From IMG/VR virus record IMGVR_UViG_3300010280_000146: DNA of 10,110 bases; one strand, written 5' to 3'. Position 1 is the stretch's first letter. Every line of letters starts with the position of its first letter. This document shows positions 3,109-8,460 of this stretch, piece after piece. This stretch comes from a virus (taxonomy: Duplodnaviria > Heunggongvirae > Uroviricota > Caudoviricetes). The translations under genes were made by a program, and so were the position numbers. The notes under the pieces were generated by a model, which was given only the letters and a program-made list of their open reading frames with translations, searched no databases and was not told where the DNA came from.

Positions 3109-3990
3109 TTACATAGATGTTTCGTTTAATTCTTCCCGACGAACGCTGTAAACGTCGGTGGCTTTTGCCAGCAGTTCGTCATCATCTGAAAGTTTTTGTG
3201 CAATGTATTTGTAAGCCTTATCCAGTTCGGAGACAGTGCTGTAATTCATCGCTGCGCTGGTAAAGGCCATCAGCATTTCTTCTGGATCACGGCTATCCGC
3301 TTTACGCGTTTGCTCATCAGGCTTTTTCACTGGTTTAGCGTTGATCAGACTGTTCATTCCCGCAGCAGTGGTCGTTTGCGGAGTAATGTCTCGCTCAACG
3401 CGCGGTGCCGTTTCCTGTAATTCGTCTGGGGTGTAAACACCGAGAAGTACATCAGGAGCGTGCAGGCGAGCCCATCGTTTCGTGCAAAGATAGGCAAGTT
3501 GCTGGCGCGGATCCTGTTCCCACAATGGAGAGTTACGCACTCCGGCTTGCGCCATACTGATGGTAAGCTCACGGGGTTCTGCTTCTCCTTTAAGAACTGC
3601 TGACACAGTTACCGTCAGATTCGGTGATTTATCTGTTTTGCCGTTAACATTCGACCAGTCACCGCTCCAGCGATAATTCAGGCGTGTCGCTAGCAGGCTG
3701 GAAGAGGATACGACCGCGTTTACCAACTGTGCTTCGTAGCCTAACGTTCCGTTTACCACATGCGTTTTCTGCGCCACGGCGAAAGGGTTCATTCCCCACT
3801 GTGCCGCCTGCATGGTCACCGCCAGGCAATCGGCAGGTTTGCCTTCAAGATGTTTCGGTACAGTCGCTTTGCTTTGTGACATCAACTCCGCGAAACGCAC
3901 CAGTTGATTCATGCCATCGGGGCTGAAGATTGCCGCAGCAGTGCCCACAGTTGCGCCTGGTTGTGATGTGATTGCGATATCATTGCTCAT
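3109..3990 (-). CDS. Bet/RecT-superfamily single-strand annealing protein (lambda Bet-like recombinase)
   Basis: 293 aa; segments MQAAQWGMNPF, NSPLWEQDP...RWARLHAPDVLLGVYTPDE and ERDITP parallel lambda Bet motifs (QYGLNPW, TGPWQSHP...QCARLAFGFAGIYDKDE, ERDITP) as recalled from memory. ATGA overlap with the upstream exonuclease gene. Confidence 0.85.
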   Translation of the reverse strand: MSNDIAITSQPGATVGTAAAIFSPDGMNQLVRFAELMSQSKATVPKHLEGKPADCLAVTMQAAQWGMNPFAVAQKTHVVNGTLGYEAQLVNAVVSSSSLLATRLNYRWSGDWSNVNGKTDKSPNLTVTVSAVLKGEAEPRELTISMAQAGVRNSPLWEQDPRQQLAYLCTKRWARLHAPDVLLGVYTPDELQETAPRVERDITPQTTTAAGMNSLINAKPVKKPDEQTRKADSRDPEEMLMAFTSAAMNYSTVSELDKAYKYIAQKLSDDDELLAKATDVYSVRREELNETSM

Positions 3991-4808
3991 ACGTACATAT
4001 CCTGTTTACGTGCCCAGTCAGGGCGTTTAATAATTTCCACTCCGCCCCATTCATCGTTGATGCGGCATTCGTGGTAGGTATTCAGATCCCGGCGGAACAG
4101 AGCGTGCCCGGCATCGACATCTGGCGCATCCAGCTCGAACACGCGTACCGGATACCGACCACAATCAATGCTTTCGCTCACGGCAAGAAAGAAAAAACCA
4201 TGCGGCTGACCAGTAACCCTCATTGCGCCTTCGCGGTACATTGCGTCCTGCACGTGGTAGCGGAATTCCTCGATGTGGCGTGCAAAACGGTCCATATCCG
4301 CAACCTTTTTCACGTCGACGATCACGTTGTGCTCGTTCAGCCATTTGTCTGGACGAATTCGGCACAACTCACCCGTTTCTTCATCGTTCCAGTACATTGA
4401 TGCTTCGCAGTAACCAGGTGCTTCCAACATCCAGCGTGCCGCCGGATGAGCCATTGCGCTATCACGCATCAGCTCCAGTTTTCGCCACTGCTCGACATCA
4501 AGTACCGCAATACCCATATCCGTCACATCACGAAGAAATGCTTCTTCGTCAGCTTTACCTTGTTTTGTCCGACGATCGAATTTCGGTGAAACGATGAAGC
4601 GTTTGTCGAATTCTCCAGGTTCCAGAAGCAGGCAGTGCAATGCGGTTCCCATATCCAGTGCAGAATTTTTCTCTTCGTCTTCTGGTGCTGCCTGAATCCA
4701 TTTAAGAAGCGCCGGATTCTTGGCAACCATGTCCAGTTGCGACTTACTCACGCCGTCACCGGCGTGGTAGTCTTCGTTGCTGATGTCGAAATAAATTCCC
4801 GGTTTCAT
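3987..4808 (-). CDS. RecE-like PD-(D/E)XK exonuclease (exodeoxyribonuclease VIII-like; partner of the annealing protein)
   Basis: 273 aa; N-terminal GIYFDISNEDYH and the nuclease core RIRPDKW...VIVDVKKV (D...D/E-x-K) plus YHVQDAMY resemble RecE C-terminal-domain-type nucleases; directly upstream of and coupled to the Bet-like gene. Confidence 0.8.
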   Translation of the reverse strand: MKPGIYFDISNEDYHAGDGVSKSQLDMVAKNPALLKWIQAAPEDEEKNSALDMGTALHCLLLEPGEFDKRFIVSPKFDRRTKQGKADEEAFLRDVTDMGIAVLDVEQWRKLELMRDSAMAHPAARWMLEAPGYCEASMYWNDEETGELCRIRPDKWLNEHNVIVDVKKVADMDRFARHIEEFRYHVQDAMYREGAMRVTGQPHGFFFLAVSESIDCGRYPVRVFELDAPDVDAGHALFRRDLNTYHECRINDEWGGVEIIKRPDWARKQDMYV

Positions 4809-5104
4809 GCCGCGTCCCTCTGCCCATCAAGCTGATCTGCCAGATCCCAGCGGGCGATAATTGCCATTGCCTCTCGCCGGTAGGCATCCATTAGTTCTTC
4901 GAACTCAGGGCTGTCTTTAGCGGCCTCCAGTACTTCCTGGCGAACGCCTTTGCCTGTTACAACGTCGAAAGTTGAGGCCAGTTGATGAAGTCGGATGCTC
5001 TCAATCAGTTCAACTTGTCGGTCATATAGCTGTTCTGACAGGCGGTAGTCCTTGTCGAACGCCAGCATGATTTTTTGAAGATTTTTCTGCTGATTAACGT
5101 TCAT
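4805..5104 (-). CDS. Hypothetical protein (99 aa) first-in-line upstream of the exonuclease gene; function unknown
   Basis: Track ORF 4805..5119; preferred start is ATG 5104 because GGGAGG sits 7 nt upstream. ATGA overlap with the exonuclease start at 4805-4808. Product MNVNQQKNLQKIMLAFDKDYRLSEQLYDRQVELIESIRLHQ..., no family recognised. Confidence 0.6.
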   Translation of the reverse strand: MNVNQQKNLQKIMLAFDKDYRLSEQLYDRQVELIESIRLHQLASTFDVVTGKGVRQEVLEAAKDSPEFEELMDAYRREAMAIIARWDLADQLDGQRDAA

Positions 5105-5106
5105 TA

Positions 5107-5259
5107 TCAGCCCTCCCATATCTCGTTATCGTTGGCCACATCGCGAGCTTCTTTGCTGACGAAAGCCCACTTAATGCCTTCCTGTAAGGTGCGGAACTTC
5201 CAGCTCATGAATCCGCATGCAGTAACACAGTACCAACCGTTGATAATTTTCCACTGCAT
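5107..5259 (-). CDS. Unannotated small ORF (50 aa, Trp/Cys-rich) at the head of the leftward operon
   Basis: Hand-translated: ATG at 5259..5257 to TGA at 5109..5107 gives MQWKIINGWYCVTACGFMSWKFRTLQEGIKWAFVSKEARDVANDNEIWEG. Its stop is 2 nt from the next start (TGAtaATG) and its 3' end carries that gene's RBS. Below the 60-aa track cutoff. Confidence 0.35.
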   Translation of the reverse strand: MQWKIINGWYCVTACGFMSWKFRTLQEGIKWAFVSKEARDVANDNEIWEG

Positions 5260-5278
5260 AACTTGTTACCTCGGTCTG

Positions 5279-5293
5279 TTACCGTTGAGGTAA
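5279..5293. promoter_or_regulatory. Operator-like palindrome TTACC GTTGA GGTAA (leftward early promoter region, site 1)
   Basis: Perfect 5-bp inverted half-sites with a 5-bp spacer; overlaps the putative -10 and start-site region of the leftward promoter. Confidence 0.45.
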
Positions 5294-5321
5294 TAATTAT
5301 GCGTATCTGGTTTGATGTCAA
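5293..5321 (-). promoter_or_regulatory. Putative pL-like sigma70 promoter for the leftward recombination operon
   Basis: Minus-strand -35 TTGACA (plus 5316-5321, perfect consensus), 17-bp spacer, -10 AATTAT (plus 5293-5298); flanked by the two palindromic sites. Confidence 0.4.
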
Positions 5322-5340
5322 TAGATATGAGTTAAAAAAA

Positions 5341-5355
5341 TTACCCGTTAGGTAA
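5341..5355. promoter_or_regulatory. Operator-like palindrome TTACC CGTTA GGTAA (leftward early promoter region, site 2)
   Basis: Perfect inverted half-sites; centre is 62 bp from the centre of site 5279-5293. Confidence 0.45.
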
Positions 5356-5365
5356 TCGAATAGGC

Positions 5366-5390
5366 AATAAAAAAGCCGCCATAAGGCGGC
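5366..5390 (-). terminator. Rho-independent terminator of the repressor-candidate gene
   Basis: On the minus strand: stem GCCGCC / GGCGGC with loop TTAT followed by TTTTTATTG, 23 nt downstream of the stop at 5413-5415. Confidence 0.6.
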
Positions 5391-5412
5391 TTACTTACTG
5401 AAAAATATGATT

Positions 5413-5997
5413 TTATTGTTTGTTTTTTTCGTTCTGGTTGATGACAAATTCAATGTAACTTTCGATCTTTGCCTTCTCTGTTTCAGGTAACAATGCGTAG
5501 CGCGAGCGGTCATAGTTGATAGTTGCAGGGTCATGCGGATGAATCAGTAGTTCATATCCGTGACGCCCGAATGCAGATGCAACATTCTCCAGGGTGGAAA
5601 TGGAAACGCTGACCTCATTGTTTAACAGGCGGCTTATTGTCACCTGGGCGACGCCGGATGCGCGGTGAAGTTTTCCCTGAGTTGAAAGGTCGCGGCTTTC
5701 ACTCATCCAGCGTTCCAGGTTGTGAGCTGCCAGCTGACCAATGTCGCTTGGGCCGACAGGCTGAAAACCTTCCTGAGAAAGCGAGCGATCGATATCAAGC
5801 CAGTTACGGGGTTTATTGGCGGCAGCTTCAATTTTTCGCGCAACCTGGTCGCCGATAACCTTCTTGCCAAGAGCCCAGCGGTTTACCAGATTTGCCTGAG
5901 TTCCAAGTTTTTCTGCCATCCGCGTCTGAACACCATTGAATTCACGGTCGATCAAGTCGTTGAGATTTTGCCTGCGGACGTCCTGGATACTTTTCAT
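5413..5997 (-). CDS. Tandem helix-turn-helix (two XRE-type HTH domains) transcriptional regulator; candidate prophage repressor
   Basis: 194 aa. First HTH around GVQTRMAEKLGTQANLVNRWALGKKVIGDQVARKIEAA, second around LHRASGVAQVTISRLLNNEVSVSISTLENVASAF. No LexA/S24 peptidase motifs seen. Placed like cI, divergent from a Cro-like gene, with its own terminator. Confidence 0.75.
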   Translation of the reverse strand: MKSIQDVRRQNLNDLIDREFNGVQTRMAEKLGTQANLVNRWALGKKVIGDQVARKIEAAANKPRNWLDIDRSLSQEGFQPVGPSDIGQLAAHNLERWMSESRDLSTQGKLHRASGVAQVTISRLLNNEVSVSISTLENVASAFGRHGYELLIHPHDPATINYDRSRYALLPETEKAKIESYIEFVINQNEKNKQ

Positions 5998-6052
5998 TTT
6001 CTGGAAAATCGCCTCATATATGAATCAGTAGATGATTCAATTTAAAGCAATA

Positions 6053-6067
6053 TTACCCAACAGGTAA
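6053..6067. promoter_or_regulatory. Operator-like palindrome TTACC CAACA GGTAA (divergent promoter region, site 1)
   Basis: Perfect inverted half-sites between the repressor-candidate start (5997) and the Cro-like start (6152). Confidence 0.45.
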
Positions 6068-6069
6068 AT

Positions 6070-6084
6070 GCACCCCATAGGTAA
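6070..6084. promoter_or_regulatory. Degenerate operator-like site GCACC CCATA GGTAA (divergent promoter region, site 2)
   Basis: Right half-site perfect, left half-site 3 of 5; centre 17 bp from site 1. Confidence 0.3.
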
Positions 6085-6090
6085 CTATCC

Positions 6091-6127
6091 TTGATTTTTG
6101 TTACCTTATGGGTGAATATTTATTATC
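6091..6127 (+). promoter_or_regulatory. Putative pR-like promoter for the Cro-like gene (element assignment ambiguous)
   Basis: Candidate -35 TTGATT (6091-6096) or TTGTTA (6099-6104) with -10 TATTAT (6121-6126, 16-bp spacer from the latter); overlaps operator-like site 3. Confidence 0.3.
6101..6115. promoter_or_regulatory. Operator-like site TTACC TTATG GGTGA (divergent promoter region, site 3)
   Basis: Left half-site perfect, right half-site 4 of 5; overlaps the candidate rightward promoter. Confidence 0.35.
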
Positions 6128-6151
6128 TGAAATAAATATCAGGCAATAGCT

Positions 6152-6382
6152 ATGAGCGATAACGGACATTTCGATTTCAAAAAGCACTGGCTTGCACTTA
6201 CTCCGGATGAGCGTGAAGCCTTCGCACAGGAAGCCGGAACGACGAGTCACTATATCCAGACTCACTTAACAGGTAAGCGCAAAATGCCAGGTAAGGTATT
6301 GATGAATGGGCTTTTTAAAGCCTGTAAAACAAGACAATGGCTGCGCTCAAAAGCGGAACTGGCATACTTCTTCTACTCATGA
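6152..6382 (+). CDS. Cro/YdaS-like small HTH regulator
   Basis: 76 aa; LTPDEREAFAQEAGTTSHYIQTHLTGKRKMPGKVLMNGLFKACK fits Cro/CI-type and YdaS-like HTH proteins. Divergent from the repressor candidate and followed by a terminator. Confidence 0.7.
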   Translation: MSDNGHFDFKKHWLALTPDEREAFAQEAGTTSHYIQTHLTGKRKMPGKVLMNGLFKACKTRQWLRSKAELAYFFYS

Positions 6383-6403
6383 TATCTGGCAACAACCCTC
6401 TGT

Positions 6404-6427
6404 AGACCGCCATCCGGCGGTCTTTTC
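6404..6427 (+). terminator. Rho-independent terminator directly after the Cro-like gene
   Basis: Stem AGACCGCC (6404-6411) / GGCGGTCT (6416-6423), loop ATCC, then a short T-run (6424-6426). Confidence 0.55.
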
Positions 6428-6437
6428 ATATCTATTC

Positions 6438-6452
6438 GTACCTCAAAGGTAA
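6438..6452. promoter_or_regulatory. Operator-like site GTACC TCAAA GGTAA upstream of the replication operon
   Basis: 9 of 10 half-site positions match TTACC/GGTAA; lies between the cro terminator and the 66-aa gene, followed by a TTGATA -35-like hexamer at 6470-6475. Confidence 0.3.
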
Positions 6453-6532
6453 TAAAAAACCAAATCTGGTTGATATTTTTTTTGTGTCAGCACAAAATAA
6501 CCGTAATCCCAATACTAATAACAGGGCTTACC

Positions 6533-8346: not shown

Positions 8347-8383
8347 TACCAGCGCGATAGCGCATTTTTTTACGCCTTGATAA

Positions 8384-8398
8384 TTACCTTTTGGGTAA
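8384..8398. promoter_or_regulatory. Operator-like palindrome TTACC TTTTG GGTAA downstream of the P-like gene
   Basis: Perfect inverted half-sites in the AT-rich intergenic region 8347-8463. Confidence 0.4.
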
Positions 8399-8445
8399 TA
8401 AAGTATTCTAAACTCTATTGATTTCGTGTCTTATGTGGTTTTTAA

Positions 8446-8460
8446 TTACCTCAGGGGTAA
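8446..8460. promoter_or_regulatory. Operator-like palindrome TTACC TCAGG GGTAA abutting the DUF1064 gene start
   Basis: Perfect inverted half-sites ending 3 nt before ATG 8464 and overlapping the likely RBS; centre 62 bp from site 8384-8398. Confidence 0.4.

Follow-up and report, generated by a model that had tools for sequence, protein, structure and literature searches.

The stretch of tailed-phage DNA analyzed here (IMG/VR record IMGVR_UViG_3300010280_000146; 10,110 nucleotides, hereafter the window) carries, between positions 5279 and 5355, two short inverted repeats with a promoter-like sequence on the minus strand between them. This arrangement raises the questions of what the element is, which protein would read the repeats and what the 62 bp between them might mean. 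Over its whole length, the region from 4700 to 6500 of the window shows 98.2% identity to Escherichia phage phiV10, a Uetakevirus (epsilon15-like temperate podophage), and to ~17 close relatives. Based on the phiV10 annotation and the list of open reading frames (ORFs), the integrase gene heads the layout, ahead of a leftward operon that includes DUF1382, methylase, PerC-like and AlpA/Xis-like genes. The genes and terminator that bear on the locus are:

3109 to 3990, leftward operon: recT-like gene
3987 to 4808, leftward operon: recE-like gene
4805 to 5119 and 5107 to 5259, leftward operon: two small ORFs
5107 to 5272, minus strand: first gene of the operon of the leftward promoter (PL), including its SD (ATG at 5259, SD GAGG at 5272 to 5269); 50 aa, phiV10 p39 (ORF list, phiV10 annotation)
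5373 to 5392, minus strand: intrinsic terminator of the repressor gene (terminator scan; also annotated in phiV10)
5413 to 5997, minus strand: gene for the repressor Rep, 194 aa, the presumed binder of the sites (phmmer, Pfam)
6152 to 6382: divergent cro-like gene, followed by its own terminator and then by replication genes
8464 (ATG): DUF1064 gene, after a second promoter module, P3

The recE-like and recT-like genes of the window are separate ORFs with a 4-nt overlap, as in phage Tyrion, whereas the phiV10 record has RecET as one fused 586-aa protein.

The probable leftward promoter and its two flanking sites

The original prediction placed a minus-strand TTGACA −35 and an AATTAT −10 between the two repeats. 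Both hexamers are evident in the sequence and were recovered by a promoter scan, which found TTGACA at 5321 to 5316, a 17-nt spacer and AATTAT at 5298 to 5293. With a score of 10/12 this was the top sigma-70-like match between 4800 and 6600, and its spacer falls within the 16 to 18 nt expected between the −35 and −10 of a sigma-70 promoter; the AATTAT −10 alone matches the consensus at 4/6 positions. In the direction of transcription, the candidate elements are:

5340 to 5356 (core 5341 to 5355, TTACCCGTTAGGTAA): putative upstream Rep operator of PL, ATTACCCGTTAGGTAAT, centered at ~−62 (exact motif match)
5334 to 5339, minus strand: T-tract just after the upstream operator, ~−54 to −49 (read from the sequence)
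5316 to 5321, minus strand: −35 TTGACA, inside the conserved block CTATTGAC
5293 to 5298, minus strand: −10 AATTAT, ending at 5293 with a T that also opens the core of the downstream operator
5278 to 5294 (core 5279 to 5293, TTACCGTTGAGGTAA): putative downstream Rep operator of PL (exact motif match)

The PL layout is thus an operator, 19 nt, the −35, 17 nt and a −10 that overlaps the second operator. The sites begin at 5279 and 5341 and, as had been claimed, lie 62 bp apart, both start to start and center to center. Transcription is predicted to start near 5286, ~7 nt past the −10; with such a start, the downstream operator would span ~−7 to +8 and be centered on +1, in agreement with the proposal that it covers the −10 and start-site region; it shares one base (5293) with the −10. 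It ends 19 nt before the first leftward gene. The upstream operator lies 17 nt past the terminator of the repressor gene. This position of the element, after the repressor terminator and before the first leftward gene, as in lambda PL, supports its reading as a leftward early promoter. The T-tract is possibly an UP-element-like or bendable segment; its length varies from T6 to T8 in relatives, and this is the source of the 61- and 63-bp variants of the spacing. The predicted leader RNA of PL showed no significant structure when compared with shuffled sequence (z = 0.27).

The sites had been described as perfect palindromes. Over 15 bp they are not, as their centers, GTTGA and CGTTA, are not self-complementary. 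They are, however, perfect matches to TTACC-N5-GGTAA. Specifically, the operators are hyphenated inverted repeats of 17 bp, aTTACC-N5-GGTAAt, and both PL cores match all 10 specified bases; the arms are complementary over 5 bp (6 bp at 5340 to 5356, ATTACC/GGTAAT) and the 5-nt center is asymmetric. The motif is strongly enriched. The window contains five exact copies, compared to 0.00 expected (not one exact site in 200 shuffles), and 11 sites with up to two mismatches, compared to 3.0 expected. TTACC was the sole 5- or 6-nt arm, at spacers of 2 to 8 nt, that gave at least three inverted repeats in the window. In the phiV10 genome, 14 sites with up to one mismatch were found (0.64 expected), almost all of them intergenic and at the heads of transcription units.

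The Rep repressor and other candidate sites

In a phmmer search, residues 1 to 190 of the 194-aa protein encoded at 5413 to 5997 matched the Rep protein of Salmonella phage SPC32H (PDB 5D50; E = 4e-42), for which a second matching structure, 5D4Z, is available. Pfam gave a strong HTH_3 match at residues 106 to 147 and a weak resemblance of the N-terminal domain to YdaS_toxin/Cro; only HTH families were found, and no Peptidase_S24 domain. The notion that the protein has two HTH motifs that both bind DNA was rejected: HTH_3 falls within the crystallized 92 to 198 fragment, which is the dimerization domain, so that database notes of "two HTH motifs" mislead on which part reads DNA. In the N-terminal domain, the sequence NLVNRW (36 to 41) is invariant in six aligned Reps of 42 to 78% identity. 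The tetramer-interface residues F187 and F190 of SPC32H Rep align with Y181 and F184 of the window Rep.

The work on SPC32H Rep, as summarized in PMC9638917, describes a protein that binds DNA as a tetramer, with dimers binding weakly. Each palindromic site is read by two N-terminal domains that belong to separate dimers, and Ant, a tetrameric antirepressor, breaks the Rep tetramer up into dimers. A structural study divides Rep into an N-terminal DNA-binding, a middle dimerization and a C-terminal tetramerization domain, places the two middle-domain pairs ~100 Å apart and likens the C-terminal domain to the DNA-looping tetramerization domains of Rco and p53 ("TetDloop"); crystal contacts suggest that octamers can form, and the structural repression mechanism is said there to have "not been extensively characterized" (PMC9986798). 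From its homology to SPC32H Rep and the conserved interface aromatics, we infer that the window Rep is likewise a tetramer with two DNA-binding units.

The induction circuit described for SPC32H also appears to be encoded by phiV10. In the 20543 to 20837 region of that genome, which lies outside the window, p24 is 88% identical to SPC32H Ant; a perfect LexA box, CTGTATAAATACACAG, is found just upstream of p24 at 20822 to 20837, and Rep sites are located near this ant homolog at 20497 and 20877. The combination of an Ant homolog, a LexA box and Rep sites suggests that the Rep–Ant–LexA circuit extends to phiV10-type phages.

The remaining sites of the window are:

257 to 271: one-mismatch site, TTACCTTAAAGGTAT, ~43 nt upstream of the integrase start
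6053 to 6067, 6070 to 6084 and 6101 to 6115, rep/cro-like intergenic region: OR cluster of one exact site, one with a GCACC half-site and one with a GGTGA half-site
6438 to 6452: lone one-mismatch site, GTACC...GGTAA, 14 nt past the cro-like terminator
8384 to 8460, plus strand: P3 module, with an operator at 8384 to 8398, 19 nt, TTGATT at 8418 to 8423, 17 nt, TTTAAT at 8441 to 8446 and an operator at 8446 to 8460

The centers of the OR sites are 17 and 31 bp apart, and the imperfect half-sites (GGTGC and TCACC) are invariant in 80 of 80 related loci, which suggests a conserved affinity hierarchy analogous to that of lambda OR1 to OR3. This three-site OR-like cluster, the adjacent gene for a Rep homolog and the annotation of orthologous sites in epsilon15 together support the proposed control of PL by a repressor. 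The site at 257 to 271 is found in its GGTAT form in phiV10, epsilon15, SPC32H and Tyrion as well; the epsilon15 annotation of the corresponding region shows Int-binding and RNase III features in place of an operator.

P3 repeats the plan of PL. Its operators are exactly 62 bp apart, the gap of 19 nt and the one-base overlap of −10 and operator are the same, its −35 block is CTATTGAT and the DUF1064 gene follows it directly. Thus, the PL element is one of two copies of a module. P3 was not called as a promoter by the consensus scan, and its −10 lacks an A at position 2, so its status as a promoter rests on architecture and not on consensus. A promoter-like TTGATA, 16 nt, TAAAGT at 8377 to 8404, with the operator in its spacer, was attributed to chance since its TTGATA is unconserved and lies in a hypervariable flank. 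The −35 conservation at PL and P3 reaches beyond the hexamer (5316 to 5324 and 8415 to 8423); the two modules could be paralogs, or the block could be recognized by an extra factor. The rep terminator, the cro-like terminator and one that phiV10 annotates after its P gene each have a Rep site 14 to 18 nt further on (5341 to 5355, 6438 to 6452 and 8384 to 8398, respectively). The third of these, upstream of P3, is weak and was missed by the terminator scan.

Conservation of the 62-bp spacing

The RefSeq record of Salmonella phage epsilon15 (NC_004775) has "protein_bind, repressor, lysogeny" features at 32554 to 32570 and 32616 to 32632, in the interval that separates the repressor gene from gp37. 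Their spacing is likewise 62 bp, and in an alignment they fall in register with the window sites at 5279 and 5341; further repressor protein_bind features stand at 32479, 35906, 12, 2931 and 19895. The epsilon15 repressor, gp38, is 42% identical to the window Rep, and the half-sites, spacing, position, −35 block and −10 overlap of its PL are those of the window. The two differ in a third site, present in epsilon15 76 bp further downstream, and in the gap to the first gene, which is 89 nt in epsilon15 and 19 nt in the window. Kropinski et al., in the epsilon15 genome paper of 2007, reportedly gave an operator consensus of this kind, 17 bp long. In the phiV10 record, terminators are annotated but operators are not, the open literature that we searched held no mention of the operator sequence or of phiV10 operators, and the ZX5 paper speculates on a "PL operon" and names no sites. 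The SPC32H switch has a homologous full-length repressor (42% identity) and the same operators and modules as the window; the Ant homolog (88% identical) and LexA box are shared by the near-identical phiV10. As the motif, the adjacent cognate Rep gene and an orthologous annotated position were all found, the window sites can be assigned, from sequence comparison, to the operator family of epsilon15 and SPC32H Rep.

In all, 16 modules were compared, PL and P3 from each of 8 phages (the window, phiV10, Tyrion, BUCT554, epsilon15, SPC32H and two Klebsiella phages). All 16 consist of aTTACC-N5-GGTAAt, 19 nt, the −35 block, 17 nt and a −10 that ends on the first T of the downstream aTTACC, the gap between operator and −35 being 20 nt in Klebsiella PL and 19 nt elsewhere. 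The −35 block reads CTATTGA(C/T/A) in 15 of them; the exception is the P3 of Tyrion, GTATTGAT (GTATTGA). A scan of genome contigs with a Rep alignment yielded five relatives that match the N-terminal domain only and six more full-length ones with the same motif; these six prophages (of Superficieibacter, Erwinia dacicola, Klebsiella, Scandinavium and, twice, Citrobacter) have a spacing of 61 to 63 bp at both promoters. Among 80 phiV10-like loci from IMG/VR, which contain 155 operator pairs, the spacing is 62 bp in 152 pairs, 61 bp in one and 63 bp in two. Overall, a pattern search found the bracket, at 61 to 63 bp, in 94 of 99 loci. The other five are the N-terminal-only relatives (Paraburkholderia, Hydrogenovibrio and Thiomicrospira), in which we found neither the TTACC motif nor any recurrent inverted repeat, and which have a different presumed recognition helix. 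There was no case of operator/repressor covariation among the loci from the Rep scans. The 80 viral loci, all found by the Rep scan, encode an identical protein; they hold no covariation signal but could be used for polymorphism.

The sequence between the operators has changed far more than its length. Across these 47 bp, identity drops to 27/47 (~57%) in epsilon15 PL and to 22 to 26/47 in the P3 modules. A spacing of 61 to 63 bp around so diverged an interior indicates that length is constrained where sequence is not. Hence the importance that the original prediction had attached to the spacing is supported by comparison: it is kept at 61 to 63 bp at two promoters in every full-length relative examined while the intervening sequence drifts. 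The predicted six helical turns agree with the arithmetic (62/10.5 = 5.9 turns), and the statement that both sites lie on the same DNA face is to be read as phasing arithmetic only. In these terms, two operators that flank or overlap a promoter are in helical phase at this locus, and the 94 loci keep them at 61 to 63 bp. The distance from OR to PL is less constant, 703 to 726 bp in relatives (712 bp in the window), and OR and P3 are 1.7 to 2.3 kb apart.

Reps that are only 42 to 45% identical to that of the window, from phages of Salmonella, Klebsiella, Citrobacter and Scandinavium, are accompanied by identical operator half-sites. Thus, phages of different hosts may be mutually immune or cross-regulating.

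Within 79 to 80 near-identical phages with identical Rep, the TTACC/GGTAA half-sites are kept at the upstream operator of PL in 79/79, at its downstream operator in 77/79 and at the corresponding P3 operators in 76/76 and 75/76. The centers vary freely, with 15 and 4 alleles at the upstream and downstream operators of PL and 27 and 10 at those of P3. The arms are fixed and never covary. This pattern argues for a protein that reads two half-sites without contacting the center, and not for an RNA stem. Per-column diversity is 0.2 to 0.5 in the upstream-operator centers and ~6 nt just upstream of them (5341 to 5361 and 8375 to 8398); the third-codon means are 0.05 in rep and 0.01 to 0.02 in neighboring genes. 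Relaxed constraint, a mutational hotspot or selection on operator strength are possible sources of this excess variation.

Possible modes of repression by Rep

We consider it very probable that the repeats are operators and the element between them a promoter. That the element is specifically the PL-type leftward early promoter of a phiV10-like phage, held repressed by Rep in the lysogen, is probable. Rep would read TTACC/GGTAA half-sites, 10 bp apart center to center, probably via an N-terminal helix–turn–helix that includes NLVNRW. Bound at the downstream operator, over the −10 and +1, it would block RNA polymerase directly, while a second operator, at ~−62, is separated from the −35 by a constant 19 nt. 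One Rep tetramer might hold both operators, with cooperative binding and a bent 47-bp core promoter; Ant, which is under LexA control and would be made once LexA is cleaved, would then split the tetramer and free both sites together. That a single tetramer clamps both operators in this way is a possibility to which we give somewhat less than even weight. Two DNA-binding units per tetramer and poorly binding dimers would favor engagement of two sites. Bringing sites 62 bp (~210 Å) apart to within 100 to 140 Å would take a bend of ~180 degrees, at a cost of ~10 kT in a worm-like-chain estimate. Such a bend is feasible but not trivial, and for this reason the clamp step is put forward conditionally. 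A wider form of the proposal is given similar weight: a micro-loop of a single tetramer would be a portable 62-bp clamp that every Uetakevirus uses at two promoters or more, with 61 to 63 bp reading out the geometry of the tetramer.

Somewhat doubtful, yet the nearest competitor of the clamp, is an arrangement without a loop in which Rep acts at each operator independently. The downstream operator would occlude the promoter, and the upstream one would either block contacts of the alpha-CTD with an UP element (−40 to −60) or stop transcripts that read through the rep terminator. The idea of such a roadblock stems from the operators found 14 to 18 nt beyond each of the three terminators: the upstream PL operator is 17 nt past that of rep, the 6438 site 14 nt past that of the cro-like gene, and the upstream P3 operator follows a stretch annotated as a terminator in phiV10. 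All modules have an A/T-rich tract between the upstream operator and the −35, and a protein that blocks the alpha-CTD would also predict a fixed distance to the −35, so the constant 19-nt gap could reflect this function as well as the clamp. Two further points weigh against the preferred reading. The third PL site of epsilon15 and SPC32H, 76 bp further downstream, is not needed by a clamp, and PL and P3 may be paralogous copies. On the other hand, a pure roadblock does not need a spacing held within 1 bp of the promoter while the interior diverges to ~57% identity, and Rep is by homology a tetramer with two DNA-binding units whose dimers are weak binders (PMC9638917).

The operators might instead take part in a long-range loop to OR, 712 bp away, as in the OL–OR octamer of lambda, the 62 bp being a by-product of promoter geometry. 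In all relatives, 703 to 726 bp separate OR from the PL pair, and crystal contacts suggest that Rep can form octamers (PMC9986798). The distance from OR to PL, however, varies by more than 20 bp, compared to 1 bp at most for the pair, and the P3 pair keeps its 62 bp at a variable distance of ~1.9 to 2.3 kb from OR. As a replacement for the clamp such looping is improbable; it is possible in addition to the bracket and would leave the invariant 62 bp unexplained. That the repeats arose by chance or act as RNA hairpins in a leader or terminator is the least credible reading and is effectively refuted. A 5-bp hairpin is conceivable for each repeat, but 200 shuffles gave no exact site at all, the transcript would take in only ~8 nt of the downstream site and none of the upstream one, which lies before the start, the predicted leader folds like shuffled sequence, and fixed arms around a free center, without arm covariation, are the pattern of protein half-sites.

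The element resembles lambda PL/OL and its repressor CI in being a leftward early promoter beside an immunity region, with a prophage repressor, a three-site OR and an operator over the core promoter. It differs in that the lambda operators, of 17 bp each, form an adjacent set of three to which dimers bind cooperatively, compared to two sites in the window that flank the promoter at a spacing of 62 bp, and in that Rep operators are also scattered across the phiV10 genome. Rep lacks the S24 autocleavage domain of CI, which points to induction by an antirepressor. By analogy, the single-tetramer clamp recalls PrgX (pCF10), Rco (pLS20), GalR and LacI, in which a tetramer with two DNA-binding units engages two in-phase operators that flank or overlap a promoter; these proteins are unrelated to Rep apart from the tetramerization fold, and for Rep looping is a proposal. 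The loops of gal (~113 bp) and lac O1–O3 (92 bp) are both longer than 62 bp. P1 C1, the CB repressors of N15 and phiKO2 and the stoperators of mycobacteriophage L5 gp71 provide a further likeness, as prophage repressors with many dispersed operators; in phiV10, one repressor has ~14 sites genome-wide, at the start of most transcription units and in some cases just past terminators. The Rep sites differ in being symmetric and mostly at promoters, and a stoperator-like block of elongation is conjecture for Rep.

The PL bracket does not overturn current understanding. Its novelty is low since the orthologous epsilon15 sites are already annotated and the repressor family is structurally solved; what may be new is that the fixed 62-bp bracket is reused as a module, at two promoters, throughout the genus. 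For annotation, the gain is the placement of PL, P3 and ~14 Rep operators in phiV10-type prophages, which are common in E. coli including O157:H7. The strict 62-bp bracket at two promoters and the solved tetrameric repressor together predict one tetramer per promoter and repression that depends on helical phase. If the clamp is true, few known repression loops would be as short, and release by Ant would occur in one step, making a switch that works without cleavage of the repressor. Finally, the half-site shared by relatives from E. coli, Salmonella, Klebsiella, Enterobacter, Citrobacter and Erwinia, with Reps down to 42% identity, prompts the question whether these phages are cross-immune.
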